Of a stretch of DNA of 64,000 nt, positions 5,470 through 33,671 are shown piece after piece. The position numbers and the translations under genes were made by a program. The notes under the pieces were generated by a model. The model did no database searches. It saw only the letters and a list, made by a program, of their open reading frames with translations, and was not told the DNA's origin. Source of the DNA: Escherichia phage vB_EcoM-fFiEco06; sequence record NC_054914.1, one strand, 5' to 3'. Position 1 is the first letter of the stretch, and each line of letters opens with the position of its first letter.

Positions 5470-6279
5470 ATGCTTAAAGAACAACTGATTGCCGAAGCGC
5501 AGAAAATTGATGCTTCCGTTGCTCTTGATAGTATTTTCGAATCAGTTAATATTTCTCCGGAAGCAAAAGAAACTTTCGGCACTGTATTCGAAGCTACCGT
5601 CAAGCAGCACGCCGTTAAATTAGCTGAATCTCATATCGCTAAAATTGCTGAAAAAGCAGAAGAAGAAGTAGAAAAAAATAAAGAAGAAGCAGAAGAAAAA
5701 GCTGAGAAGAAAATCGCTGAGCAAGCTTCTAAATTCCTTGACCATCTTGCAAAAGAATGGCTCACTGAAAATAAATTAGCAGTAGATAAAGGTATCAAAG
5801 CCGAACTGTTTGAATCCATGCTTGGTGGATTGAAAGAGCTCTTCGTTGAACACAACGTTGTTGTTCCAGAAGAATCAGTTGATGTTGTAGCTGAAATGGA
5901 AGAAGAACTGCAAGAACATAAAGAAGAATCAGCTCGTCTGTTCGAAGAACTCAATAAGCGTGACGCATATATCAATTATGTGCAGCGTGAAGTGGCATTG
6001 AGCGAAAGTACTAAAGATCTGACTGAGTCTCAAAAAGAAAAAGTCTCTGCTCTGGTCGAAGGTATGGATTATTCAGATGCATTCTCAAGTAAATTGAGTG
6101 CAATCGTAGAAATGGTGAAGAAATCTAATAAAGATGAAAGCACTATTACTGAGAGTATAAATACTCCTGATACTGAAGCAGCCGGACTGAATTTCGTCAC
6201 TGAAGCTGTAGAAGATAAATCTGCACAAGGTGCAGAAGATATTGTAAGTGTATATGCGAAAGTCGCATCTCGTTTCTAA
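5470..6279 (+). CDS. 22: prohead core scaffold protein gp22
   Basis: 269 aa, Glu/Lys-rich coiled-coil-like protein; position upstream of 23. Confidence 0.85.
   Translation: MLKEQLIAEAQKIDASVALDSIFESVNISPEAKETFGTVFEATVKQHAVKLAESHIAKIAEKAEEEVEKNKEEAEEKAEKKIAEQASKFLDHLAKEWLTENKLAVDKGIKAELFESMLGGLKELFVEHNVVVPEESVDVVAEMEEELQEHKEESARLFEELNKRDAYINYVQREVALSESTKDLTESQKEKVSALVEGMDYSDAFSSKLSAIVEMVKKSNKDESTITESINTPDTEAAGLNFVTEAVEDKSAQGAEDIVSVYAKVASRF
6156..6163 (+). promoter_or_regulatory. late promoter TATAAATA inside 3' end of gene 22, candidate promoter for gene 23
   Basis: Exact TATAAATA ~135 nt upstream of gene 23 ATG. Confidence 0.55.
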
Positions 6280-6297
6280 TTTTAAAGGTTAACACAA

Positions 6298-7863
6298 ATG
6301 ACTATCAAAACTAAAGCTGAACTTTTGAACAAATGGAAGCCATTACTGGAAGGTGAAGGTTTACCGGAAATTGCTAATAGCAAACAAGCGATTATCGCTA
6401 AAATCTTTGAAAACCAGGAAAAAGATTTCCAGACAGCTCCGGAATATAAAGACGAAAAAATTGCTCAGGCATTCGGTTCTTTCTTAACAGAAGCTGAAAT
6501 CGGTGGTGACCACGGTTACAATGCTACCAACATCGCTGCAGGTCAGACTTCTGGAGCAGTAACTCAGATTGGCCCAGCTGTTATGGGTATGGTACGTCGT
6601 GCTATTCCTAACCTGATTGCTTTCGATATTTGTGGTGTTCAGCCAATGAACAGCCCGACTGGCCAGGTATTCGCACTGCGCGCAGTATATGGTAAAGACC
6701 CAATCGCTTCCGGTGCTAAAGAAGCATTCCACCCAATGTATGGTCCAGATGCAATGTTCTCTGGTCAGGGTGCTGCTAAGAAATTCGCTGCTTTGAAAGC
6801 AAGTGATACTCTTGAAGTCGGAACTATTTACACTCACTTCTTCCAGGAAACTGGTACAGTATATCTGCAAGCTACAGCAGCTAAACAAATTGATTCAGGC
6901 GCATCTGACGCAGACAAATTAGATGCTGAAATTAAGAAACAAATGGAAGCTGGTGTACTGGTAGAAATCGCTGAAGGTATGGCTACTTCTATCGCTGAAC
7001 TTCAAGAAGGTTTTAACGGTTCTACCGATAACCCGTGGAATGAAATGGGCTTCCGTATCGATAAACAAGTTATCGAAGCTAAATCTCGTCAGCTGAAAGC
7101 TGCTTACTCTATTGAATTAGCACAAGACCTCCGCGCTGTTCACGGTATGGATGCTGATGCTGAACTGTCTGGTATTCTGGCTACAGAAATTATGCTGGAA
7201 ATCAACCGTGAAGTTGTTGATTGGATTAACTACTCCGCTCAGGTTGGTAAATCTGGTATGACCCTGACTCCGGGTTCTAAAGCTGGTGTATTTGACTTCC
7301 AGGACCCAATCGATATTCGTGGTGCTCGCTGGGCAGGTGAATCCTTTAAAGCTCTGTTGTTCCAGATTGACAAAGAAGCAGTTGAAATTGCTCGTCAGAC
7401 TGGTCGCGGCGAAGGTAACTTCATTATCGCTTCCCGTAACGTAGTTAACGTTCTGGCTTCAGTTGATACCGGCATTTCTTATGCTGCACAAGGTCTGGCT
7501 ACTGGCTTTAACACTGATACTACCAAGTCAGTATTTGCTGGTGTTCTGGGTGGTAAATACCGTGTATATATCGACCAGTATGCTAAACAGGATTATTTCA
7601 CCGTAGGTTATAAAGGTCCGAACGAAATGGATGCTGGTATTTACTATGCTCCATATGTAGCTCTGACTCCGCTGCGTGGTTCTGATCCGAAGAACTTCCA
7701 ACCGGTAATGGGATTCAAAACTCGTTACGGTATCGGTATCAACCCATTTGCAGAATCCGCTGCTCAGGCTCCGGCTTCTCGCATCCAGAGCGGTATGCCT
7801 TCTATTCTGAATAGCCTTGGTAAAAACGCTTACTTTAGACGTGTATATGTTAAAGGTATCTAA
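6298..7863 (+). CDS. 23: major capsid protein gp23 (521 aa precursor)
   Basis: Sequence recognisable as T4 gp23 (MTIKTKAELLNKWKPLLEGEG...); length identical. Confidence 0.97.
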   Translation: MTIKTKAELLNKWKPLLEGEGLPEIANSKQAIIAKIFENQEKDFQTAPEYKDEKIAQAFGSFLTEAEIGGDHGYNATNIAAGQTSGAVTQIGPAVMGMVRRAIPNLIAFDICGVQPMNSPTGQVFALRAVYGKDPIASGAKEAFHPMYGPDAMFSGQGAAKKFAALKASDTLEVGTIYTHFFQETGTVYLQATAAKQIDSGASDADKLDAEIKKQMEAGVLVEIAEGMATSIAELQEGFNGSTDNPWNEMGFRIDKQVIEAKSRQLKAAYSIELAQDLRAVHGMDADAELSGILATEIMLEINREVVDWINYSAQVGKSGMTLTPGSKAGVFDFQDPIDIRGARWAGESFKALLFQIDKEAVEIARQTGRGEGNFIIASRNVVNVLASVDTGISYAAQGLATGFNTDTTKSVFAGVLGGKYRVYIDQYAKQDYFTVGYKGPNEMDAGIYYAPYVALTPLRGSDPKNFQPVMGFKTRYGIGINPFAESAAQAPASRIQSGMPSILNSLGKNAYFRRVYVKGI

Positions 7864-23143: not shown

Positions 23144-25201
23144 CTACATTTTGAACTTTTTAGACATTCCGTTGATGTTAACCAAAGAAGTCAAGATTTG
23201 AGAAACTTCATTTTCCTCTTCTTTTGATTCTTCTACAAGGAATTGATTAAATCCAGCCATTGGACGAACTTCACCAGTTTCCATTAGATGGTCTCCATCA
23301 TATACTGATTCTTCTAATTGTTCAGAAGGAGGAACGATTGTACCTTCGATTAGATACTTGTTATAAGCAGTTTCTTTCATAAAGTACGTACTTACTTTAT
23401 TAATCTTCAGTAAAATTCCACGTGGTAGAATAACTTCAGCTTCTGATGGAAATCCTGATAAATGACCTGGAACGATAACTTTGATTCGCTCAGCTCCTTT
23501 AATTACCATACCCACGCTAGTTTCTGCATCTTCATTAGCATATGTAGAATGACTACCCATATGCATCAAATCTTCTGCATCAACGGAACCTTCTCCTTCA
23601 CCAGAAAATACTGCGCCGGAATCATCTAGAGCCATATAGTTTTTACCATGCTCACCGAAGATATTTGGTTTAAGCGATGTGGATACGAAGTTCTTGAAAT
23701 AGAACATTTTATTTTCAATGTTATGACGCAAAGTTTTAAAGGTAACTTCTTGCCCACGGTAAAGTGTAGTTCCTGGAGGAAGAACTGATCCTTTGGCAAA
23801 GGCAGAATCTAACGTCTCGATGTGCTTAATAGCTCGTTCCATGTATTCTTCACGGGTAGAATCTGGTTTACCCAAAAGGAACGAGTTCATTTCAACATAT
23901 GAATCTGCACAATAATCTTCAATTACATCAGATTCAGCCTGAGTCAGTCCTTTTGGAGCTACTTCGGTGCTTGCGTATTCATATGCCTGGGCAGCAGATT
24001 CATTAATCAATTTATAAATGCCATTCATTACAAATTGAATAATAGCTGTCTTTTCATCTGGTGTGGTTTTAGAACCTTTAACTAAATCATTAATAATTTT
24101 CTTAATAACATCAAAGCTATTAGAAATATTAATGTCAGCAAGATCGCTTAAAATTTTATCAGTTTTATAATCAAAGAATTCTTTATTCTTTAAATATTCT
24201 TGAGAACCTTGATATGTTATATCGCTCTGCAACTTGATAGATGGATCACGTAAACGTGCATGGGCCAATGCAATATGATTTCGGAAGCTTTCTAGTTCAT
24301 AATCGCTAGATTTAAAACGAGAAGCACTTCTCATACCACCGATAGCTCCTTTGCTGAAGTTTGAACCAATCTGGATAACGCCAGAGTTCATTGGTCCTTC
24401 TGCTTTATATACCGGAACTTTAGATTCAAACTCTTGATATTTCTTGGCAGCGAAGCTATCACCCTGTAGCGAAGCATCGACAGTAGAATATTGAGCTTGT
24501 GCTGCTAATCGACGACTAATTTTAGTTTTCTGAATAACAGCTTGGTCCGTGCGCTTATCATTTTCTAAAGCAATAGAAGCAGCAACAGCGACAGCTTTAG
24601 GAACAGCATTTCCTGTTTTAACGTCTACATAAACATCACCGACCTTTGATTCAACTTTTGTGAATAACTCAGTTGAAATGGGAGGTACACCTGGAATGTC
24701 TTCTAAATTGGCATTTTTACGGTAAACCATAATATATGCGTACTTTTTATCGTAATCCCAGATTTCCTTTAAAAGAACATATCGACCTGCTCCTTTAGTA
24801 CGTACTAAACGGTCAGCAATAACTTGCATTTGACGAGCTGCGCCATTTGTTTTACTCTTTAGTACACGGAATAAGCACGCGTCAATTTTATACTGCTTCA
24901 TTGTTTGAAGAGCAGTATCAAAAACGGCATTAATGACACCAATTGGATTTCCACCCAAGTTTTTAAGCTTAACTAATGATAGTTTCTCATTAACACCTAT
25001 CATTACGATATGCATCATTTTATCGCCTGGCTTAACGTTTTTATTCGTATCACCACCAGAGGTGTATGTACAAAATCTAAATCCAGGAAGCACGCTTTCT
25101 TCGCCGGCTTGAATAGCAAAAATTTGTGGTATTTTATGCTTAGGATTTAAGTTAACAACCGGCGCCGAAGCGCCGTCAAATAATTCTGTAATAAGTTCCA
25201 T
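23144..25201 (-). CDS. Alt-like ADP-ribosyltransferase paralog (685 aa), R-S-E motifs intact
   Basis: N-terminus MELITELFD shared with the upstream copy; TLYRGQ, NFVSTSL, EAEVILPRG motifs seen. Confidence 0.75.
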   Translation of the reverse strand: MELITELFDGASAPVVNLNPKHKIPQIFAIQAGEESVLPGFRFCTYTSGGDTNKNVKPGDKMMHIVMIGVNEKLSLVKLKNLGGNPIGVINAVFDTALQTMKQYKIDACLFRVLKSKTNGAARQMQVIADRLVRTKGAGRYVLLKEIWDYDKKYAYIMVYRKNANLEDIPGVPPISTELFTKVESKVGDVYVDVKTGNAVPKAVAVAASIALENDKRTDQAVIQKTKISRRLAAQAQYSTVDASLQGDSFAAKKYQEFESKVPVYKAEGPMNSGVIQIGSNFSKGAIGGMRSASRFKSSDYELESFRNHIALAHARLRDPSIKLQSDITYQGSQEYLKNKEFFDYKTDKILSDLADINISNSFDVIKKIINDLVKGSKTTPDEKTAIIQFVMNGIYKLINESAAQAYEYASTEVAPKGLTQAESDVIEDYCADSYVEMNSFLLGKPDSTREEYMERAIKHIETLDSAFAKGSVLPPGTTLYRGQEVTFKTLRHNIENKMFYFKNFVSTSLKPNIFGEHGKNYMALDDSGAVFSGEGEGSVDAEDLMHMGSHSTYANEDAETSVGMVIKGAERIKVIVPGHLSGFPSEAEVILPRGILLKINKVSTYFMKETAYNKYLIEGTIVPPSEQLEESVYDGDHLMETGEVRPMAGFNQFLVEESKEEENEVSQILTSLVNINGMSKKFKM

Positions 25202-25204
25202 GAT

Positions 25205-27259
25205 TTATCCTTGAACGAACTTGTAAGGCATGTTTGCAATATCTATACAAGACGCAATAATTCCAAGAGATGATTCTACTTTCTGTTTAACGTTTGATGA
25301 AACAAATGATGTAAAGTCAACTCTGTCTTCTATTTCAATATCACCTGTCATTGCAACTACTTCGCCGGTTTCCATTAGACGGTCACCGTCATAAATTACC
25401 GATTCGGTGAGTTCTTCTGTGGTCATAACTTCAGCTTGAATAAGCTTGTTGTTAGTTTTAACTGTTCCATCATTGTAAGATGCATCGGTTATTTTATTAA
25501 CTTTGACCATTAATCCACGTGGCAAAATGACTTCCATTTCATTTGAAGGTGCTAAACTTCCACCTGGTAAAACAACATTGACTTTATCAGCCCCAGTAAT
25601 AACCCATCCAATTCCAACTAAATTATCGCTAGAATTTACTAGTCCTTCATCAGTTTTATCAATAGAAACACTTAAACGCTTTTCGTCTGGTAAAACACCC
25701 ACAGATGAATCAGTCATCCAGGTACCAAAAATATTTGGATATAATGATGTTGACACAAAATTTCTAAAATAAAAAACTCGATTTTTTACCAGTGCTTCAT
25801 ATATTGAAGGTAACATTCGTTGTGAACGATACAAAGTAATACCTTTTGGTAATCGTTCACCATTTTTAAAGGCAGAATCTAAATTATCAATAGCTTTTTC
25901 TATATCAGATGCTGTCAAAATACTTGTACGCTCATCTGGATTATATAATCCCAAAAGAGCGTTATTTATGTCTACATATCCTGAACTTACGTATTCACGA
26001 ATTCCGCGTTTTTGTGCCGGTGTGTATTTAGATGAATCTTTATTTTCGACTATAGGATGTAGTGACCATCCAGCGGTAAGAGCATATCCACGCAATTCTC
26101 TTCGAATAATCTTTGTTTTTATTGCATTCCAAGAATTTTGTACTAACTCATTCGCAGCATCTTGATTTAAATGCGAATGCTTGTTAATGTTTCTTTCTAA
26201 CCAAGCACCTTTATATTTTTCTAAAGTATCATCAACTATAGAAGCAATAGTTTCTAAAGTTTTTATTGAAGTAATAGATTCTTTTCGTAATCTTTCTAAA
26301 GCTTTATTTTTTATTTCTGCATTAACATCAGATTCTTTATCTTCAGGAATTATAGAAGCTTCTCTGAATGCCATTCCAGCTGTAACACTACTAAGAGCAT
26401 TCTCTAATGCAAATCCTGAAGTAGAAATAACAGTTAATTCATTAGCGTCAGAAATTAAAGGAGCGTCAGCAGGTTTATTTAATTCTGCTGCTGAAGCCTC
26501 AAATTTTTGAAACATCGGCGTTTCAAATCTAGAAGATTCCAATGATTGACTTTGCGCAATTGCTCTACGGGAAATTTTAACTTTAACGATTACAGCTTGG
26601 TCAGAACGTTTATCATTTTCTTGCGCAATAGATGCTGCAATTGCCTCATTTTTAGTTACTTGAGCTCCAGTATCTTTATTGATATAAACATCACCGACCT
26701 TCGATTCAACTTTAGTAAAGAGCTCAGTACTAATTTCCGGAACTCCCGGAATGTCTTCTAGTGATACATTTTTGCGATGTATAAGAATATATGCATACTT
26801 TTTATCGTAATCCCAGAGTTCCTTAAGAAGGACATATCTGCCACCTGAACGACTACGGATAAGTCTATCAGCAATAACTTGAATTTGTCGAGCTTGACCA
26901 GCGGTTTTAGACTTAAGAATACGAAGCATACAGGCATCAATTTTATACTGACGCATTGTTTGCATCGCAACAGTAAAAACTGAATTGATATAATTAATTG
27001 GGCTTGGACCAAGACCTTTTAATTTAGCAATTGAACCTTTAGCAGTTAATGTAAAAGGAACAATATGCATCATTTTATCGCCCATCTTTAAATCGCGATT
27101 AGTATCACCTCCAGATGTATAGGTACATAAACGAAAGCCTGGTTGTTCAATTGCATCATCAACATGAACTGAAAAAATTTGCGGTATTTTCTTCTTTGGA
27201 TTTAAGTTTGTAATCGGAAGAGTAGTATCTTCGTCAAATAATTCTGTAATAAGTTCCAT
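25205..27259 (-). CDS. alt: ADP-ribosyltransferase Alt (virion-packaged); start taken as second ATG (MELITELFDEDTT...)
   Basis: LYRSQ, FVSTSL, EMEVILPRG (R-S-E ART motifs); late promoter and RBS upstream; ~684 aa. Confidence 0.8.
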   Translation of the reverse strand: MELITELFDEDTTLPITNLNPKKKIPQIFSVHVDDAIEQPGFRLCTYTSGGDTNRDLKMGDKMMHIVPFTLTAKGSIAKLKGLGPSPINYINSVFTVAMQTMRQYKIDACMLRILKSKTAGQARQIQVIADRLIRSRSGGRYVLLKELWDYDKKYAYILIHRKNVSLEDIPGVPEISTELFTKVESKVGDVYINKDTGAQVTKNEAIAASIAQENDKRSDQAVIVKVKISRRAIAQSQSLESSRFETPMFQKFEASAAELNKPADAPLISDANELTVISTSGFALENALSSVTAGMAFREASIIPEDKESDVNAEIKNKALERLRKESITSIKTLETIASIVDDTLEKYKGAWLERNINKHSHLNQDAANELVQNSWNAIKTKIIRRELRGYALTAGWSLHPIVENKDSSKYTPAQKRGIREYVSSGYVDINNALLGLYNPDERTSILTASDIEKAIDNLDSAFKNGERLPKGITLYRSQRMLPSIYEALVKNRVFYFRNFVSTSLYPNIFGTWMTDSSVGVLPDEKRLSVSIDKTDEGLVNSSDNLVGIGWVITGADKVNVVLPGGSLAPSNEMEVILPRGLMVKVNKITDASYNDGTVKTNNKLIQAEVMTTEELTESVIYDGDRLMETGEVVAMTGDIEIEDRVDFTSFVSSNVKQKVESSLGIIASCIDIANMPYKFVQG

Positions 27260-27282
27260 CATAGCCTCTCTAGTGTTTATTC

Positions 27283-27290
27283 TATTTATA
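27283..27290 (-). promoter_or_regulatory. late promoter TATAAATA (minus strand) for alt
   Basis: Plus-strand TATTTATA ~20 nt upstream of GAGAGG-ATG. Confidence 0.6.
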
Positions 27291-27295
27291 AAATT

Positions 27296-27313
27296 AAAGG
27301 CCCGAAGGCCTTT
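27296..27313 (-). terminator. AAAGGCC-CGAA-GGCCTTT hairpin downstream of the 62-aa ORF
   Basis: 7-bp stem read directly; overlaps the ORF stop. Confidence 0.5.
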
Positions 27314-27500
27314 AATAATCTAGTGGTAAGAGAGTACGGTATATTTCAAACTTTGGACCTTTTTCATAGGCATCAAATGTTTCTGTGAATTTATTATAAG
27401 CGTATGCATCTACAAATTCGAGAATGACTTGTGATACAGAAGTAGAAACATCTCCACCTTCTTTTTGAGCAATGACAATTGTTTCTAAGTAAGCTTTCAT
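27312..27500 (-). CDS. hypothetical small protein, 62 aa, between gene 30 and alt
   Basis: Start overlaps ligase stop (ATGA). Confidence 0.4.
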   Translation of the reverse strand: MKAYLETIVIAQKEGGDVSTSVSQVILEFVDAYAYNKFTETFDAYEKGPKFEIYRTLLPLDY

Positions 27501-28960
27501 AAACCAGTTACCTCATGAAAATCACCAAATACATCCTCGAATGTATTAGCTTTAGTTTTATCTTCACGCAAACGAATCGCAATCGGAAGAAATAATTTAA
27601 CGTAATCAGTGCGGCCATCAGATTTTAACCAACCGTTGCATTCGCACTCTAGAATTTTTCCAATATAATAATTTTGGTTTTCCATAATGCGAGTACGGTC
27701 AAGTTCATGCGATTTTACACCGGCTTTATCTTTTAAGCCTGAACCAGCATTTACTTTAATTTTTCCACACTCTGACTCAAGAATAAATCCACCTGCTTTA
27801 GTAGGGTCTTTACGGTGAGGATAAATTCCTACAATTTTTAAATCAACATCAATTACTTCTTTAAATTTATAGAGATTTTTTGAACGAGCATTTTCCCATA
27901 ATCCATCGATATTTTTGAGAATAATACCTTCAAGACCTTGGTCAATATACTTTTTATAAATTACCTTGGCTTCGTCTAGGTTATTTACTACCTGGTTTTC
28001 AATTAAAATTACTTTATCATAGCCTGATGTCATTTGTTCTAGTTTAGAAAAACGTACATCATATTTCAAACGAAATGCAGGAAGACCGTATATTTCTACC
28101 AACGGTACATAATCCCAGACCTGAAACTTCATGCATTGTGCTTCTTTTTCAGAAATGGTTCCCTTTAAAGATTTATTGGCGATGCCATTAGATGCAGTAC
28201 GTGATTCAGCTACTTCGGCGAATTCTTTAGCTTTACTGTTTTCAGGATAAGCATCAAAAAGAAAATCTAGGCCTTCTGGCTCCTTTTCAACTTGCTCATG
28301 GTATACCAATTCGCCATCAATTAACACACCTTCTGGATGAATCTGGCGAGCTTCTGCAGTCATTTTGATTAACTCTTCTTTGAGAAGATCTAATCCTAGA
28401 TATTCATTACCAGCTCGTGATAAAAGACGAACATCATCTAATTCATCACCTCTGACTTCAGCAAAGCACCGAGCTCCATCAGCTTTTAATTGGGCAAAGG
28501 CTGGAAATTTGATATTCTTGCTAATGCCTTTTTCATCATAAGAACTTGCCAGCATTTGAGGTTGTTCAGGAATTAAACCTGGCCAAACTTTGTTTGCAAT
28601 AGATACTGATGCACCGCATTCAAGGTCTCGCATCATCACCCGACGCAAAACTTCAACATCATCTTTTTTACCGTCAGCAATATATCCAGTCAATTCCTCA
28701 ATTGCCGCATTTCCAGTCAATTTCCGAGTAGCTAATGTGAATTCAATGAAGTCAAGCATATCGGTAAGAGTCAACATTCCAAAACTCTGGGTAGCAATAC
28801 CAGGTTTAGGCCATTTCTTGATATAATACTGTAACCCACGAGAATAAGTTAGACGATATACTCGTTTAAGCAATTCATTATCTTTATTCTTTTCAAGAAT
28901 TGCTTGCTTCTGCTTAGTTGAACCAATAGATGCTATTTTGTTCAGAATTTTAAGAATCAT
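27497..28960 (-). CDS. 30: ATP-dependent DNA ligase gp30 (487 aa)
   Basis: Sequence recognisable as T4 DNA ligase (MILKILN...; adenylation lysine in KADGARC). Confidence 0.97.
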   Translation of the reverse strand: MILKILNKIASIGSTKQKQAILEKNKDNELLKRVYRLTYSRGLQYYIKKWPKPGIATQSFGMLTLTDMLDFIEFTLATRKLTGNAAIEELTGYIADGKKDDVEVLRRVMMRDLECGASVSIANKVWPGLIPEQPQMLASSYDEKGISKNIKFPAFAQLKADGARCFAEVRGDELDDVRLLSRAGNEYLGLDLLKEELIKMTAEARQIHPEGVLIDGELVYHEQVEKEPEGLDFLFDAYPENSKAKEFAEVAESRTASNGIANKSLKGTISEKEAQCMKFQVWDYVPLVEIYGLPAFRLKYDVRFSKLEQMTSGYDKVILIENQVVNNLDEAKVIYKKYIDQGLEGIILKNIDGLWENARSKNLYKFKEVIDVDLKIVGIYPHRKDPTKAGGFILESECGKIKVNAGSGLKDKAGVKSHELDRTRIMENQNYYIGKILECECNGWLKSDGRTDYVKLFLPIAIRLREDKTKANTFEDVFGDFHEVTGL

Positions 28961-29226
28961 TGTTCATCCTTTAGAGTTTGGTTTACAGCTCTATTATAAA
29001 TCAATTCATCATTAAGCTCAGTCAAAGACTTGTGGTACGTGGTTCTAACTTTATTTCCTTGCATCCAGTGCTTGACGTAAATGAAACCTTGCTCTACACA
29101 TTTTTTAAAAATTCGTTCGTCTTTTTGAGCTCGGAATTCTGGATTGCATCTAAAAAATTGATTTACGTGACCGTAATCACGTGTAGTATTACCTTCATTT
29201 TCATAAATAGTGTGAACGACAAACAT
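28957..29226 (-). CDS. hypothetical early protein, 89 aa (positional equivalent of T4 30.1)
   Basis: ATGA overlap with gene 30. Confidence 0.5.
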   Translation of the reverse strand: MFVVHTIYENEGNTTRDYGHVNQFFRCNPEFRAQKDERIFKKCVEQGFIYVKHWMQGNKVRTTYHKSLTELNDELIYNRAVNQTLKDEQ

Positions 29227-30062
29227 TAGAATGCTCCTTGAAAAATATTATCACCACTAGTAGGTCTATTATACAAATACTCTATGCCACCGGGTTTAAT
29301 ATAGTTCCATGTCTGAAACGGATGCGTCTGATATGGATGATATAGATTATAAGGATTAAATCCAGGAGTTCTCCAGGTAGTGTTCCAAGGAAAAGAATCG
29401 TTTTTAATCATCTTTTCAATTACATCTTTTATAGCTTTTTCACTATCAAAACTTTCTTTATTTTCATTCGATGGAAAAAGCTTATTCTCTACATCATTCC
29501 ATGTATAAACTCGCTGTGCAGTTTTTGGAATACTGTCACGCTCCCCTCGAGCCATCCAATAAACAGGAACATTTAATATTTCACTCGCATGATCGCAGTG
29601 GTGAGCGAGATCGTCAATATAACAAATTACGTTATATTTCTCTTTTGCCTTTTTGAACAACTCTTCTTTTGAAGAATCATGACCACACATCAATACTTCT
29701 GAGAAGGCACCAGGAAAAAGAGCATTCAAATTAAATTGACGATTCAGCAGAGCGTCAATAGAATCACCCAGTGCTGTAACAGCTACAAAATTATAATCTT
29801 CTTTTAATTTGTTAATTACACACAGGGCATCTTTATATGGAGACAAATAGCGAATAAAATCTGAACGATTATACTTTTCGATTAATTTAACACCAAGTTC
29901 TTCATCGCAATTAAAGAGCTTACCAGGAGAAATAAATTTTTCGTCCTGAATCATTTTTAAAATATGTTCCAACGGAAGATTATATTTTTGGGCAAAATAA
30001 GGAAGGCCCGATTGCCAGCTTAAACACACCCCGTCAATATCAGTCAAAATAGTAGGCTTCAT
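29226..30062 (-). CDS. HAD-superfamily-like hydrolase/phosphatase candidate, 278 aa (position of T4 30.2)
   Basis: N-terminal ILTDIDGV (DxDG[VT]) and later YIDD motif; aromatic/Pro-rich C-terminal tail. Confidence 0.5.
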   Translation of the reverse strand: MKPTILTDIDGVCLSWQSGLPYFAQKYNLPLEHILKMIQDEKFISPGKLFNCDEELGVKLIEKYNRSDFIRYLSPYKDALCVINKLKEDYNFVAVTALGDSIDALLNRQFNLNALFPGAFSEVLMCGHDSSKEELFKKAKEKYNVICYIDDLAHHCDHASEILNVPVYWMARGERDSIPKTAQRVYTWNDVENKLFPSNENKESFDSEKAIKDVIEKMIKNDSFPWNTTWRTPGFNPYNLYHPYQTHPFQTWNYIKPGGIEYLYNRPTSGDNIFQGAF

Positions 30063-30523
30063 AGAGAGTCTCTTAATAGGTTTAACACATCAATAAATTC
30101 AGCTTCGGTTAGTATTGTATCATCTTTTGTTAGACCACTAGCCATGCTATGCTTCAAAATTTTTCCTTTAGAGGCTTGTAAGGCATCACGAAACCCCTTG
30201 TTTTGAATCGCTGCTTCAAAATATGCATTTGTATACAACTCTTTCCATGCTGCAGAGTATCTTGAAAAGGGAATTCCAAGCCAGAAAAGCGTCCCACGGT
30301 CCGCAGCTCTTGCATAAGCTCTTCCACTTTGCTGGGCGGCCAAGCCGGAGAGCCCAAATATACGTTTTTGTTGTTCAACATTTTTCACCTTGCATCCTTG
30401 GAGGAATCCTTCAAGACCTCCGAATTGAATACCATCCATGACGAAAGGCCATTGGGCGAAATTACTTAATGCACACGATGGCCATCTAAAATTGCTTCTA
30501 ATCTCTAACTCAGACATTTTCAA
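30059..30523 (-). CDS. NADAR (YbiA/DUF1768)-like domain protein candidate, 154 aa (position of T4 30.3)
   Basis: Motif ALSNFAQWPF-x2-DG-x-FGGLEGFLQG-x-K resembles the NADAR core as I recall it. Confidence 0.45.
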   Translation of the reverse strand: MKMSELEIRSNFRWPSCALSNFAQWPFVMDGIQFGGLEGFLQGCKVKNVEQQKRIFGLSGLAAQQSGRAYARAADRGTLFWLGIPFSRYSAAWKELYTNAYFEAAIQNKGFRDALQASKGKILKHSMASGLTKDDTILTEAEFIDVLNLLRDSL

Positions 30524-30716
30524 TACTTATAATTTCAACATCAGCCCAATGACCATAGCAAGGAAGACGAAATTCAACTGGCCAGTTAGGGTCCTTTTCT
30601 AATATAATAGACTTAACTTGTGGTTCTTCATGTTCATCAGTATACGGATTTTTATCTGTTACTTTATATGTGACCTTAATGTACTGAATTCCAAAAATCT
30701 TATTAATTATATTCAT
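30510..30716 (-). CDS. hypothetical early protein, 68 aa
   Basis: ORF in overlapping array. Confidence 0.45.
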   Translation of the reverse strand: MNIINKIFGIQYIKVTYKVTDKNPYTDEHEEPQVKSIILEKDPNWPVEFRLPCYGHWADVEIISIENV

Positions 30717-30910
30717 ACTAATTCCTTTAATCCGTAAATAGGAGACAATTCATCACCCATACGAAGGTCTTCATTTCCATCTACCCAGGAAACAATATAA
30801 GCCTCTTTTATTTGAATACCACTCCATTTAAATGGAGGTAGAACCTTAGAAATTAATCCAGGTATACCAACTCCCTTTAATTCAACAGTTTGACCTAAAA
30901 AGAATTTCAT
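30713..30910 (-). CDS. hypothetical early protein, 65 aa
   Basis: ATGA-coupled ORF. Confidence 0.45.
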   Translation of the reverse strand: MKFFLGQTVELKGVGIPGLISKVLPPFKWSGIQIKEAYIVSWVDGNEDLRMGDELSPIYGLKELV

Positions 30911-31197
30911 TAGAACCTCATCTGAAAGCCATGCGATTTAACATTACCGCCGCCAATATCAGAAATATTAATTTCACGCGCAATTGAAGGGTCAATGTCA
31001 ATTTCACGATTGAGTTTAGTGATAGCTAAAGTATCGCGCCCATTTACTGTACGGAACTCTAGAGGACAAACCACATTAACGTAGTTTTTAATCGATTCAC
31101 TGGTAGGTTGCAAATGAGCAGGAAGATCTTTAGGCGCCTTAGAGAAAACTACTTCGCAGAAGTTTTTACGAGTATCAAAATAAGTAGTCATAAACAT
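30910..31197 (-). CDS. hypothetical early protein, 95 aa
   Basis: ORF with GAGG RBS after hairpin. Confidence 0.5.
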   Translation of the reverse strand: MFMTTYFDTRKNFCEVVFSKAPKDLPAHLQPTSESIKNYVNVVCPLEFRTVNGRDTLAITKLNREIDIDPSIAREINISDIGGGNVKSHGFQMRF

Positions 31198-31214
31198 AGT
31201 ATTTTCCTCAGTAA

Positions 31215-31228
31215 GGGGCCGAAGCCCC
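31215..31228 (-). terminator. GGGGC-UUCG-GCCCC hairpin between two early ORFs (stability/processing hairpin or terminator)
   Basis: Same hairpin sequence as the hoc terminator. Confidence 0.4.
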
Positions 31229-31238
31229 TCATTTTATT

Positions 31239-31616
31239 TTAAATATCAAATTCGTTAAGAACTACATCAAAGATTGCTTCAAGATGCTCAGGTTTAGCTC
31301 TGTTACTCAGAATATGACGAATCCAAGTTTTAACCAAAAGCTTGCGATTAGCGCCATTCCAGCAAGGATGAGTCCCTAAATCGCGTTGACGGAAATCATC
31401 ATCCAGAGCGATTTTAAAGTTGGAACCTTCCATTGTGATTGAAACCGTGATACCGTTTTCAAATCGCATATAAACGTAATTAGGAGTCATATACTGTTCA
31501 ATTTCGCATACTGAACCATTTTGATGTTTCCAAAGGCAGATGGTATCAATAGAACCTGTAATACCATTAGAAACATATTTACGTTCAAAGTTAATGTAGT
31601 TCATTTTATTCTCCAA
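31239..31616 (-). CDS. hypothetical early protein, 125 aa
   Basis: ORF preceded by early promoter cassette. Confidence 0.5.
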   Translation of the reverse strand: MENKMNYINFERKYVSNGITGSIDTICLWKHQNGSVCEIEQYMTPNYVYMRFENGITVSITMEGSNFKIALDDDFRQRDLGTHPCWNGANRKLLVKTWIRHILSNRAKPEHLEAIFDVVLNEFDI

Positions 31617-31629
31617 GATGTTTAATTGC

Positions 31630-31669
31630 GGTACAGGTATATAATATCATGTCCTGTACCAAAGTAAAC
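31630..31669 (-). promoter_or_regulatory. early promoter/stem-loop cassette (PeSL-like): -35 GTTTAC (31669-31664), 17-nt spacer, -10 TATTAT (31646-31641), inside inverted repeat GGTACAGG/CCTGTACC
   Basis: Sigma70-like hexamers with 17-nt spacing and 8-bp inverted repeat read directly. Confidence 0.55.
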
Positions 31670-31673
31670 TATT

Positions 31674-32042
31674 TTATGCAACTTTAATCCAATTATCTAA
31701 ATTTAATTCACCTTTGGCTTTCATTTTTTCAATCAAGAGGTCAGCGGTAATACGACCATTTTGATACCACGTAACATCTTCAGAGTAACCAGTTTCTTTA
31801 TCTTCATAAGTCTCACAGCGAATTTTACCAAGAATCAAAGTTTTTAATTCGTATGTATCTCCAGTAAAAAAGTTAGTTAACATTATTTTCCAAGAGAAAT
31901 CATCAGAAGGACCTTCAGGAGTCATACAATCTACAAATTCAAATTGTTCTTTATATAAATGCCACTGAAGTTCTTTAGTTTCGATAGCTTTATAGCCGTC
32001 GTGATCTTTACCTTTGATGTATGAGTTAAGATTGATTTTCAT
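31674..32042 (-). CDS. hypothetical early protein, 122 aa
   Basis: ORF in array. Confidence 0.5.
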   Translation of the reverse strand: MKINLNSYIKGKDHDGYKAIETKELQWHLYKEQFEFVDCMTPEGPSDDFSWKIMLTNFFTGDTYELKTLILGKIRCETYEDKETGYSEDVTWYQNGRITADLLIEKMKAKGELNLDNWIKVA

Positions 32043-32069
32043 TTTATTCTCCTTTGTTTGTGTAAGATA

Positions 32070-32099
32070 ATACTATCACAAAGGAACCATACTGTAAAC
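32070..32099 (-). promoter_or_regulatory. candidate early promoter: -35 GTTTAC (32099-32094), -10 TAGTAT, 18-nt spacer
   Basis: Hexamers read on minus strand; -10 is weak. Confidence 0.35.
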
Positions 32100-32128
32100 A
32101 ACTTTGTGCAATCTTTGGAAAATAAAAA

Positions 32129-32148
32129 AGGACTCCCGAAGGAGTCCT
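32129..32148 (-). terminator. AGGACUCC-UUCG-GGAGUCCU hairpin + U-tract downstream of the lysine-rich ORF
   Basis: 8-bp stem; minus strand reads hairpin then TTTTTATTTTCC. Confidence 0.7.
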
Positions 32149-32152
32149 CAAC

Positions 32153-32329
32153 TTATGCTTTCTGCTTACCAAAACGAGAAGCATCATCTCGAAGAACCGC
32201 ACGTGCTCGGCGCATGATCTTCTCAACAGTTTGATTGATACGAGAGTTCGACCCACGCTTGTAGCCAGCGCGTTTAGAATCACCAACTTTCTTTTCAACT
32301 GCTTTCTTTGCTTTAACTTGTTTTGCCAT
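32153..32329 (-). CDS. small lysine-rich basic protein, 58 aa (MAKQVKAKKAVEKK...; position of T4 30.9)
   Basis: Start chosen at ATG 32329; highly basic composition. Confidence 0.5.
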   Translation of the reverse strand: MAKQVKAKKAVEKKVGDSKRAGYKRGSNSRINQTVEKIMRRARAVLRDDASRFGKQKA

Positions 32330-32574
32330 TATAAATTCTCTTTTAAATGAAAATGCAGGACTTATTGACATTGCCTGCGCAAGCCCTCAAGGGGAACATA
32401 GGTTTTTGGATATTTAACGACCAGGATAACCATAAACCCGTCATCATTCACATTCAAGAGGTACACCGTAAAACTGCCGGGGTCTTAAAACTATAATGAT
32501 TCGCAAATCATTAATCAGACAGTTCGACGGCTCCTCGATTTTAGCTCACACTAAGGCAGTGAATCTCCAATAAA

Positions 32575-32823
32575 TTACTTCAATGTTACCACAAAGTGAC
32601 GAACTGCTTTTCGTGCAGCAGAAGCCAGAGGCTTAGCATATTTAAGTTCATCTTTTTCCTGAAGCTCAGCAGCTAATGCAGTTTGAGCAGGATTCAGATG
32701 TTTGAAATAACGCAGGATTTCAAGAGCTTCGGCTTCAACATCAATAGATGCGCCATAGTTTTCGTGACCATTATTCCATGCGTTTCGTTGCAGTTCAAGA
32801 GCGTGTTGTAATTGTTTAATCAT
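32575..32823 (-). CDS. rIII: lysis-inhibition accessory protein rIII (82 aa)
   Basis: Length and position match T4 rIII. Confidence 0.85.
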   Translation of the reverse strand: MIKQLQHALELQRNAWNNGHENYGASIDVEAEALEILRYFKHLNPAQTALAAELQEKDELKYAKPLASAARKAVRHFVVTLK

Positions 32824-32970
32824 TTAAAAATTCTCGTTAGAGATTAAAACTCGGTAGTCACGTTCTTCTGAATTTCATCTTCTTTCGACAGATCTCTCAG
32901 TTGTAGACTACCACATAGAATTGTTCGGTTAACTTATTATTCCGACACCCAATTCATATTATTATTTATA

Positions 32971-33306
32971 TCACTTATAAAGACACGGAATAGCTTTATA
33001 GTGACAAGTAACGAATTTTTGTTTAATTTCTTTTGGCTGCTTAAGACCCAGAGCTACAAAAGGATGCGGAACATTTCGAATTTGACCAACTGGAAGAGAA
33101 GTCAAATCACCAACTTCGCAGAAACCTTCAGGAACATCAGGACCAACAGAGTGAACTACACACAGTTCAGGAACTTCACCTTGGACACGTTTACCAATAA
33201 TAAGTCCTGATTCTGTAACTTCTTCATCACCGGCTTGTGCAGGTTCAGAAACTAAAATAACATATTCACCGACAGCACGAATTGGTAGCTGTTGTACTTC
33301 AGACAT
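32971..33306 (-). CDS. 31: co-chaperonin gp31 (GroES-like, 111 aa)
   Basis: Sequence recognisable as T4 gp31 ([21 protein letters not shown]...). Confidence 0.92.
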
Positions 33307-33362
33307 CGTTTTTCCTTTTTGTTAACAGATGAATTAATAATAACAAATAGTTCTTAAAGCAT

Positions 33363-33671
33363 TTATTTACCAATAAATTGAAGCAAATGCTCAACTTTCA
33401 TACCATTAACGGAAATCAATTTGTCAATAGAAAAACCTCGCCACGCACCAAGCTCAACATCAAATACTGGAATCATGTCAGTAGATTCTTTCCGAGTAGA
33501 TTCAGTCAATTTGCCAGTTTGCATGGTTGGCATAAAGTCCGCGTCGCGAGTACCTTTCATAACACGAATAGTACCGTCAGACTTTTCAAAAACTACGTTT
33601 GAAACACCCATGGACAATTTAGTTTTCAAAATTTCACGAATTGCTACTTTTTGTTCAGTCGTCAGTTTCAT
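33363..33671 (-). CDS. hypothetical protein, 102 aa (position of T4 31.1)
   Basis: ORF in array. Confidence 0.5.
   Translation of the reverse strand: MKLTTEQKVAIREILKTKLSMGVSNVVFEKSDGTIRVMKGTRDADFMPTMQTGKLTESTRKESTDMIPVFDVELGAWRGFSIDKLISVNGMKVEHLLQFIGK

Follow-up and report, generated by a model that had tools for sequence, protein, structure and literature searches.

The locus examined here raises the question of whether a T4-like phage encodes both ADP-ribosyltransferases and an enzyme that removes ADP-ribose, and whether these act as one functional unit. In a 64,000-nucleotide stretch of the genome of Escherichia phage vB_EcoM-fFiEco06 (NC_054914.1), herein called the window, two ORFs at 29226–30062 and 30059–30523 lie near two genes for Alt ADP-ribosyltransferases. 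The initial annotation took their products for a HAD-like and a NADAR-like protein and proposed that they form a writer/eraser neighborhood with Alt. The analysis points, with a probability of roughly 90%, to a different reading: the interval contains the orthologues of T4 30.3 (adfN) and 30.2 (a HAD phosphatase-like protein), and the proximity to alt reflects the gene order of the family—as opposed to a writer/eraser module.

The source of the window is a Tequatrovirus, meaning a T4-like phage (megablast, 99.9% to a Tequatrovirus), and the gene order across the interval is the same as in the T4 annotation. Both ORFs are real and occupy exactly these coordinates on the minus strand. They belong to the compact run 30.4–30.3–30.2–30.1–30 (DNA ligase), in which stop and start codons overlap and all genes lie on the minus strand. 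Gene 30.4 (30510–30716, 68 aa, phrog_2042) ends with a stop codon that overlaps the start of 30.3, and the 30.3 stop and the 30.2 start overlap as ATGA. Between 30.2 and the ligase gene lies gene 30.1 (28957–29226, 89 aa, DUF3045; PF11243, E 1.1e-63), followed by gene 30 itself, which encodes the ATP-dependent DNA ligase (27497–28960, PF01068).

The NADAR-like ORF had been counted as 154 aa. It begins at a mechanically assigned TTG, and the start annotated in T4 corresponds to an ATG at 30517, which gives a gene 30.3 of 152 aa (30059–30517). The two extra codons, TTG AAA (30518–30523, minus strand), are probably untranslated, as judged by the T4 start and by the homologues P0001 and P0003, which are 152 aa long. 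The protein is identical to T4 gp30.3 in 144 of 152 residues (95%), over the full length and free of gaps and frameshifts; the eight substitutions (K51R, S64A, A67S, A72Q, I83V, A90P, I120V, and M125I) are conservative, and none is catalytic. A second ORF, 30.3′ (30154–30381, minus strand, 75 aa), is found in the ORF list within 30.3 in another frame; the T4 annotation gives it as an internal translation product.

The NADAR-like motif is present as proposed, apart from its spacing: it reads CALSNFAQWPFVMDGIQFGGLEGFLQGCK, with two residues (IQ) instead of one between DG and FGG. E36 (codon 30410–30412), K43 (30389–30391), and H123 (30149–30151), all encoded on the minus strand, are invariant in the family alignment. 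The Glu and the Lys are seven residues apart and align to the SEHYFQAQK motif of YbiA, and H123 is positioned in strand 120–124 of the AF2 model. This model (pLDDT 82, pTM 0.81) exhibits the α+β NADAR fold, herein with an intact C-terminal helix (residues 138–151). When compared with the PDB by Foldseek, its top three matches are E. coli YbiA (2b3w, E 5.9e-5, TM 0.61) and the NADAR proteins of G. lovleyi (8bat) and P. nicotianae (8bau); only these three reach a probability of at least 0.98, and all others have E > 2. YbiA is, thus, the top structural match.

Support from Pfam came from another model than the one expected. Gp30.3 gives no match to the NADAR model PF08719 even at E <= 1, and instead matches PF08010 (Phage_30_3) with E 3.6e-67 and 224.9 bits versus a cutoff of 36. 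PF08719 is matched by more distant gp30.3-family members, 8 of 53, below threshold (17–19 bits versus 35.1; best E 1.2e-6). In PDB searches, the single sequence found no match and a family profile was needed; this profile placed YbiA first (E 0.038), as its sole match, with the SNFA-WP...DG...E-x6-K motif aligned. Since gp30.3 itself lacks a PF08719 match, its link to NADAR is structural and by profile, not through the PF08719 HMM. Sequence and model together support gp30.3 as an enzyme of NADAR fold in which the catalytic residues are in place. The NADAR assignment of 30.3 and its function are already published.

T4 gp30.3 is AdfN, the anti-DarT factor NADAR (Johannesman et al. 2025, PMC11825919). 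AdfN strips DarT1-made ADP-ribose from DNA in vitro, T4 requires it for growth on DarTG1 hosts, and E36A, K43A, and truncation of the C terminus impair it; in RB69, loss of the C-terminal helix results in sensitivity to DarTG1 (PMC11825919). T4 gp30.3 is a hydrolase on guanine-ADPr and shows no activity on thymidine-ADPr. In the published T4 Tn-seq under DarTG1, 30.3 has a log2FC of -7.25 (q 0). Hence, the window protein would be a stand-alone NADAR-fold N-glycosidase, hydrolyzing the linkage that joins ADP-ribose to guanine N2 in DNA. Upon infection, the host DarTG1 toxin–antitoxin defense would free DarT1, which would ADP-ribosylate guanines of the phage DNA and block its replication; AdfN would then clear the guanine adducts by means of E36, K43, and the clade-specific H123, making replication possible. 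These steps were demonstrated for T4 gp30.3, and we infer them for the window gene from the 95% identity, the intact catalytic residues, and the C-terminal helix. AdfN does not save uninfected E. coli from DarT1 and rescues non-T-even phages only in part (PMC11825919). It reportedly depends on a further T-even factor (PMC11825919).

Compared with T4 AdfN, the window gene has the same position and gene order, the same length, and the same catalytic residues and C-terminal helix, and differs by the eight substitutions. NADARs share a Glu/Lys pair (E43/K50 in PnNADAR, E88/K95 in the E. coli C7 protein, E36/K43 in T4) and fall into clades by the residue of the last strand—His in phage gp30.3/AdfN, Glu in the YbiA family, and Asp in the BC4488 family. 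The DarG1/DarT1-associated NADAR antitoxins of the BC4488 family (G. lovleyi 8bat, E. coli C7 NADAR) have the same fold and E-x6-K catalytic motif and catalyze the same reaction as T4 gp30.3, guanine-ADPr hydrolysis. However, their third catalytic residue is Asp instead of H123, gp30.3 lacks an N-terminal extension and its gene does not adjoin a DarT, and AdfN is no substitute for DarG1 in uninfected cells. YbiA (PF08719), despite being the best structural match, is only 20% identical, carries Glu at the position of His123, and is a housekeeping enzyme tied to the hydrolysis of riboflavin intermediates.

With the eraser in place, the writers remain to be considered. Both are intact: the orthologue of T4 Alt (25205–27262, minus strand, 685 aa; PF03496, E 5.5e-35; best match to T4 alt, score 1473) and a second full-length paralogue (23144–25201, minus strand, 685 aa; PF03496, E 4.4e-20) show the R / STS / ExE motifs of ADP-ribosyltransferases, LYRSQ...FVSTS...EMEVILPRG and LYRGQ...FVSTS...EAEVILPRG, given in this order. 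Where the window has the second paralogue, T4 keeps the remnants alt.-1 and alt.-2 only, both of which match this paralogue better than alt. The two genes lie about 2–2.8 kb and 4–4.9 kb from the 30.3/30.2 ORFs, with the DNA ligase gene, alt.1, and 30.1 in between. The phage does, thus, encode ADP-ribosyltransferases as well as an ADP-ribose-removing enzyme, as had been suspected; that T4-like NADAR genes lie among early genes near ARTs was noted by Iyer et al. 2022.

This vicinity, with two intact transferase genes 2–5 kb away on the same strand, is what favors gp30.3, with or without gp30.2, as a protein that removes or further processes the ADP-ribose groups that Alt places on RNA polymerase alpha and additional host proteins. 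Such a role is nevertheless highly improbable. Demonstrated NADAR activity, that of T4 gp30.3 included, is all on guanine-N2-ADP-ribose in DNA, thymidine-ADPr being no substrate, and the only phenotype of 30.3 is the loss of growth on DarTG1 hosts, where alt insertions are neutral (log2FC -0.01 in the published T4 Tn-seq). The Alt product is packaged in the T4 capsid. A pattern search placed the T4 late-promoter consensus TATAAATA at 27283–27290 (minus strand), some 21 nt ahead of the start codon of alt, and we take this site to be a late promoter on the grounds of established T4 biology; the pattern occurs at 18 sites in the window versus 7.95 expected, as a match to the consensus only. A scan of 27000–33500 for sigma-70 promoters and terminators gave no excess over shuffled sequence. 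The late-promoter motif of alt and the packaging of its product imply a timing and regulation different from those of 30.3, and the alt genes would be late-transcribed separately, giving virion-packaged ADP-ribosyltransferases that lie near 30.3 by family gene order.

Synteny bears this out. Six Straboviridae loci were sampled—T4, Lazarusvirus, Pseudotevenvirus, Jiaodavirus, an Aeromonas phage, and Schizotequatrovirus. The NADAR gene is not near alt in four of the distant Straboviridae loci. In a Jiaodavirus genome, it lies 59 kb from the block of 30.2, ligase, and alt; in the Aeromonas and Vibrio relatives, none lies within 6–8 kb of this block. Both the NADAR–Alt and the NADAR–HAD adjacency are, thus, lost in other Straboviridae, whereas 30.2, ligase, and alt remain together. 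A writer/eraser unit of NADAR and HAD with Alt is not supported: the demonstrated substrate of T4 AdfN is guanine-ADPr DNA made by DarT1 and not the proteins targeted by Alt, alt is neutral in Tn-seq, and the synteny is lost.

The reaction of AdfN on DNA also has to be weighed against the proposal, made from comparative genomics by Iyer et al. 2022, that the main targets of phage NADARs are soluble immune signals derived from ADP-ribose or by-products of RNA repair, and not DNA adducts. Genes for gp30.3-type NADARs lie near RNA ligase genes in phiM12 and CcrColossus, and a NADAR fusion protein treated below (P0134) is encoded next to RtcB. The proposal appears very unlikely in view of the direct biochemistry and genetics of T4 gp30.3, which demonstrate de-ADP-ribosylation of DNA and a DarTG1-specific phenotype.

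Under DarTG1, the T4 Tn-seq found only 30.3 and its upstream neighbor 30.4 significant and conditionally essential, 30.4 being second with a log2FC of -1.79 (adjusted p 0.014); this signal may be a polar effect. Among the sampled loci, no gp30.4 homologue was found beside a NADAR gene outside the T4 locus. With the pairing confined to that locus among the loci sampled, gp30.4 is not retained as a conserved NADAR partner.

The AdfN assignment leaves gp30.2, which is 97% identical to T4 gp30.2. Its 278-aa ORF opens with MKPTILTDIDGV and contains YIDD, in agreement with the HAD-type motif first noticed. All four HAD motifs are kept: motif I as D8-x-D10-G-V (codons 30039–30041 and 30033–30035), motif II as T96, motif III as K132, and motif IV as D150-D151. 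In an alignment of 30 family sequences, with homologues down to 34% identity, D8, D10, G11, K132, D150, and D151 show no variation and T96 almost none. Residues 1–195 (29478–30062, minus strand) form the phosphatase-like domain, a Rossmann-like HAD core predicted with pLDDT > 90, in which the helices of residues 16–72 are inserted after motif I as a helical C1-type cap. Residues 196–278 and the stop codon (29226–29477, minus strand) make up a variable, mostly disordered tail rich in aromatic residues, Pro, and Asn, as seen from pLDDT (< 50 for residues 224–278) and the alignment. The tail varies in length among homologues and ends in G-I-E-Y-L-x-N-[RQ]-P-T, which is common to several genera. 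Sequence motifs and the predicted model, thus, support a HAD-fold phosphatase-like protein.

Assignment to a particular HAD family is less direct. Searches of Pfam and NCBIfam with gp30.2 gave neither PF06941/NT5C nor any other HAD model, even at E <= 1; none of about 220 homologues carries a Pfam domain, and the alignment profile, run against a set of 5.8 billion proteins, found no bridge to any Pfam-annotated HAD family. A single-sequence PDB search reached E about 1 at best, and a family profile was needed. The model matches 102 HAD structures at E <= 1e-3, and among them it is most similar to the 5′(3′)-deoxyribonucleotidases cdN/mdN; these NT5C-like structures stand at the top, with other capped HADs within one Z unit. 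The segment TDIDGVCLSWQSGL of gp30.2 is aligned with VNMDGVLADFESGL of cdN (DxDGVLxxF/WxSGL) in a weak profile match to 2jao (E 0.012); the extended motif I of the NT5C family reads DxDGVLxDF-x-xG. Compared with cdN/mdN (NT5C; 2jao, 2i7d, 1mh9) and the S. epidermidis protein 3bwv, gp30.2 is only 14–20% identical, lacks a PF06941 match, and bears an extra disordered tail of 80 residues. By its motifs and fold, gp30.2 would belong to the HAD superfamily as a Mg-dependent phosphomonoesterase with a helical cap. Its predicted substrate is most likely a nucleotide or another small phospho-ester, in view of the helical cap and of an extended motif I, DxDGVxxxWQSGL, that resembles the one in 5′(3′)-deoxyribonucleotidases. 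Literature searches on gp30.2 returned no relevant paper and no biochemical data. The gene occurs in about 1,450 phage records; a homologue in the unrelated jumbo phage Paride adjoins clamp-loader and polymerase genes.

A conserved neighbor of 30.2 is DNA ligase, with gene 30 immediately following the 30.2 homologue in 6/6 Straboviridae loci sampled, each of another genus. Gp30.2 might, hence, partner the ligase, e.g., as a DNA 3′-phosphatase that heals ends before ligation, in parallel to the HAD domain of Pnkp and RNA ligase; the surroundings in Paride and a weak PHROG match of 30.2 to polynucleotide kinase (E 0.0045) agree with this. We consider this role unlikely. A gene order kept within a single virus family says little about coupling, and T4 ligase is essential whereas T4 30.2 is fully dispensable, with insertions at 72/72 TA sites in the published Tn-seq. 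Furthermore, the best full-length matches of gp30.2 are deoxyribonucleotidases, and its helical C1 cap covers the active site as in HAD phosphatases of small molecules. The T4 Pnkp 3′-phosphatase domain (5uj0, 1ltq), in contrast, has no cap, forms one protein with a kinase, and works on the ends of polynucleotides, with only 126–129 residues aligning to gp30.2.

Alternatively, gp30.2 and gp30.3 could form a two-step pathway, in which an NT5C-like phosphatase takes over from the NADAR glycosidase, its substrate being a nucleotide product that is ADP-ribosylated or derived from ADP-ribose, and gp30.2 is the further T-even factor on which AdfN reportedly depends. The two genes share the ATGA overlap, and the NADAR-first pairing recurs in Acinetobacter phage KARL-1 and, with about 0.9 kb in between, in RB43. 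There are also single polypeptides with an N-terminal gp30.3-type NADAR and a C-terminal NT5C/HAD domain, the order being that of the genes: P0134 (NT5C, E 1.6e-16), P0139 (1.8e-5), and P0248 (weak HAD). The phosphatase domain of P0134 matches the gp30.2 profile across motifs I–II (hhalign E 7e-5, probability 63%), and its gene lies among ARH, NADAR, RtcB, and phosphatase genes. However, in the T4 Tn-seq under DarTG1, 30.2 is neutral (log2FC -0.12, adjusted p 1.0, 71 TA sites), its insertions having no phenotype in LB or M9 either (log2FC -0.10 in minimal medium), and the adjacency is not kept in the Jiaodavirus, Aeromonas, and Vibrio relatives, where 30.2 stays with the ligase. Given the neutrality under DarTG1 and the synteny breaks in other genera, gp30.2 as the missing cofactor of AdfN is not retained as the main reading. 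The fusions make up 3–4 of 53 multidomain proteins among the best 150 family representatives, which have many unrelated partners too, and the gp30.2 HMM does not detect their phosphatase domains directly: run as a family HMM against 147 gp30.3-family representatives, it found no fusions, these being found via Pfam NT5C instead. The complete two-step pathway is, therefore, very unlikely.

The NADAR–NT5C fusions still leave a weak lead for 30.2. With independent fusion proteins of this kind in bacteria and phages, their domain order matching 30.3–30.2, there is a slim chance that gp30.2 is a phage-specific NT5C-like phosphatase functionally tied to NADAR-type ADP-ribose processing. If so, it might dephosphorylate ADP-ribosylated or ADP-ribose-derived nucleotides from the repair or recycling of modified DNA. 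As 30.2 can be dispensed with under DarTG1 in E. coli K-12, such a role would come into play against another defense or in another host.

For orthologues of adfN and 30.2 in family gene order, as favored here, the NADAR gene adds no new biology. As this locus shows, proximity to Alt says little about what a gene does: the enzyme encoded by the phage would erase a DNA mark written by the host and not a protein mark written by the phage. Because vB_EcoM-fFiEco06 carries a full-length adfN allele with intact catalytic residues, it should resist DarTG1-type defense, unlike RB69. Its neighbor 30.2 encodes a well-folded, predicted HAD phosphatase whose active site is complete, and across Straboviridae the gene keeps its place beside DNA ligase. 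With the substrate of gp30.2 assigned, one of the ~100 functional gaps left in T4 would be closed.

The two open reading frames that the initial annotation placed in a possible ADP-ribosylation writer/eraser neighborhood are both present on the minus strand, at 30059-30523 and 29226-30062, and correspond to genes 30.3 (adfN) and 30.2. The first can be read as a 154-aa frame from a TTG at 30523; however, the start annotated in T4 is an ATG two codons on (30517), giving a protein of 152 aa, as in close homologues. The quoted NADAR-like motif is found as well, except that two residues (IQ) instead of one separate DG from FGG. The 278-aa product of 30.2 has the N terminus MKPTILTDIDGV and also contains YIDD. 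On the minus strand the genes follow the T4 order: alt paralogue, alt, alt.1, 30 (DNA ligase), 30.1, 30.2, 30.3, 30.4 ... rIII, 31, cd. Herein, the stop codon of 30.4 (30510-30716, minus) overlaps the adfN start, falling within codons 2-3 of 30.3; 30.3 and 30.2 overlap by ATGA, 30.2 and 30.1 by one base, and 30.1 and 30 by four bases. Over 1.9 kb around the two frames, identity to Escherichia phage vB_EcoM-fHoEco02 is 99.9%, and the segment is matched by 726 phage records, mostly Tequatrovirus. Another frame within adfN retains the 75-aa ORF 30.3' (30154-30381, minus), which is annotated in T4 as an internal translation product. A strong terminator-like hairpin (32128-32149, minus) occurs in the 30.8/30.9 region, on the upstream side of the 30.x genes; its 9-bp stem, GAGGACTCC-TTCG-GGAGTCCTT, is followed by a T-run.

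The assignment of the 30.3 product to the NADAR fold is correct. The protein matches Pfam PF08010 (Phage_30_3; E 3.6e-67) and aligns to T4 gp30.3 with 95% identity and zero gaps. A profile of ten family members searched against the PDB has Escherichia coli YbiA as its top match (E 0.038), with an alignment covering exactly the segment recognized initially, SNFA-WP..DG....E-x6-K. The AlphaFold2 model (pLDDT 82, pTM 0.81) retrieves from the PDB YbiA (E 5.9e-5), a Geobacter lovleyi NADAR, and a Phytophthora NADAR as its top three; beyond these NADAR-type structures, no match falls below E 2. E36, K43, and H123 are invariant in the family alignment. Profile-searching 1.84 billion representatives yields 1,463 gp30.3-family members, and PF08719 (NADAR) is touched, below threshold, by 8 of 53 multidomain members.

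The finding itself is not new, as the protein is already described. Phage NADARs ("gp30.3 proteins") form a clade in which His replaces the third catalytic acid, and the T4 protein hydrolyses guanine-ADPr, not thymidine-ADPr (Schuller et al. 2023; Toxins 2024, PMC11125620). In the methods of the latter, the T4 construct is given as "gp30.3; residues 1-208", more than the 152 residues that T4 gene 30.3 encodes; the construct may carry extra sequence or derive from another phage's protein. Johannesman et al. 2025 (PMC11825919) named gp30.3 AdfN. It strips the ADP-ribose made by DarT1 off DNA, and T4 depends on it for growth on DarTG1 hosts; it is impaired by E36A, K43A, and a 15-residue C-terminal truncation, which is the natural RB69 allele. 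The HIDEN-SEQ preprint confirms the conditional essentiality of 30.3. The allele in the window is full length, keeps all three catalytic residues and, judged from its sequence, very probably encodes a working AdfN. In tblastn, T4, RB33, and vB_EcoM-fFiEco06 align through to the end of the 154-aa query; for many T-even-type records (RB27, RB51, ime09, and others), the alignment covers residues 1-146 only. Hence, AdfN C termini vary among Tequatrovirus lineages, which could matter because full activity needs the C-terminal helix.

In uninfected cells AdfN is no antitoxin, and it has a partial effect for non-T-even phages; a further T-even factor is therefore suspected (PMC11825919). The T4 Tn-seq table of control versus DarTG1 contains exactly two significant genes, 30.3 (log2FC -7.25) and 30.4 (log2FC -1.79, adjusted p 0.014). 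The 30.4 signal may reflect polarity, or 30.4 may itself be the T-even factor needed by AdfN; in the distant phages sampled, no 30.4 homologue stands beside NADAR.

For 30.2, the HAD call also proves right. The 30.2 product shares 97% identity with T4 gp30.2, has no match in Pfam or NCBIfam, and belongs to PHROG 420 (unknown function); it also matches polynucleotide kinase weakly. Roughly 220 homologues share an N-terminal domain of ~195 residues; they come exclusively from T4-like phages or metagenomes, and none has a Pfam domain. Invariant positions in an alignment of 30 homologues are D8, D10, G11, K132, D150, and D151; T96 is almost invariant, and together these residues constitute the four HAD motifs. 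Residues 1-195 are modeled very confidently, and at E <= 1e-3 the model has 102 Foldseek matches among HAD structures; mouse and human 5'(3')-deoxyribonucleotidases rank first, together with a staphylococcal homologue. The family profile aligns to the deoxyribonucleotidase (cdN) 2jao (E 0.012) over the extended motif I, DxDGVLxxF/WxSGL. Together, motifs, model matches, and profile match confirm the fold. The closest subfamily is NT5C-like, with gp30.2 falling outside Pfam NT5C. A literature search returned no paper on gp30.2, which is an uncharacterized member of a known superfamily and of modest novelty. Its C-terminal tail (residues 196-278; 29226-29477, minus) is rich in aromatic residues, Pro, and Asn, predicted disordered, and variable in length. 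Near its end is a short GIEYL-x-N-[RQ]-P-T motif, common to several Tevenvirinae genera and absent from homologues of roughly 200 aa, such as those of Acinetobacter and Serratia phages. The tail looks like a putative docking peptide for a partner.

That gp30.2 is a required partner of AdfN is argued against by genetics and by sampled synteny. In T4, 30.2 is nonessential (72/72 TA sites hit), neutral in minimal medium, and without effect under DarTG1 (log2FC -0.12, adjusted p 1.0). Six Straboviridae genera (loci L001, L002, L003, L008, L009, and L010) all keep a 30.2 homologue just before DNA ligase and alt just after it. Among the loci sampled, T4 and Acinetobacter phage KARL-1 are the only ones where NADAR and 30.2 adjoin; the gap is about 0.9 kb in RB43, the NADAR gene of one Jiaodavirus is 59 kb off, and in the Aeromonas and Vibrio relatives none was found up to 6-8 kb from the block. 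In phiM12 and CcrColossus, NADAR lies near RNA ligase genes without 30.2. Hence, what stays together is the block 30.2-(30.1)-ligase-alt, to which NADAR is a movable addition. The order in the Jiaodavirus locus, 30.6-30.5-30.2-30.1-ligase-alt, gives the impression that 30.4 and 30.3 were inserted or deleted together as a pair.

A few of the top 150 gp30.3-family representatives are fusions of an N-terminal NADAR to a C-terminal NT5C/HAD domain, the same order as 30.3 and 30.2. These are P0134 (NT5C E 1.6e-16), P0139 (NT5C E 1.8e-5; on a bacterial chromosome), P0248 (weak HAD match), and possibly P0247. In hhalign, the phosphatase domain of P0134 matches the gp30.2 profile over motifs I-II (E 7e-5, probability 63%). 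Many unrelated partners are also fused to gp30.3-type NADARs in the same survey. The fusions are a genuine but thin sign that NADARs and NT5C-like phosphatases can cooperate. The P0134 fusion gene, NADAR(gp30.3-type)-NT5C, occupies 6001-6993 of locus L007 (Logan ERR9710099 contig). Its neighbors encode ADP_ribosyl_GH, a 344-aa NADAR protein, a gp30.3 fragment, RtcB RNA ligase, a PTP-NADK-like protein, and LMW phosphatase, an ADP-ribose/RNA-repair style neighborhood.

Both 685-aa Alt-type genes, alt (25205-27262, minus) and its paralogue (23144-25201, minus), match PF03496 and contain the R, STS, and ExE motifs. The paralogue is full length with R/STS/ExE intact; T4 has at this position just two decayed fragments, alt.-1 and alt.-2, whose match to this paralogue is better than to alt. 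The proposed writer/eraser unit with Alt is argued against by several observations. The alt start codon is preceded, at a distance of 21 nt, by a match to the T4 late-promoter consensus, TATAAATA, Alt is packaged in the capsid (T4 annotation; literature), and the 30.x genes are described in the literature as early. Synteny points the same way, and alt insertions are neutral under DarTG1 in the published T4 Tn-seq (log2FC -0.01). The connection of NADAR to Alt is gene order in the T4 genus, nothing more. Neither result that the initial annotation had named as contrary to its proposal, a missing fold match or absent catalytic residues, was obtained. The functional proposal holds in part: the phage does encode an ADP-ribose remover, AdfN, with the published role of an anti-DarTG1 enzyme acting on host-modified DNA.
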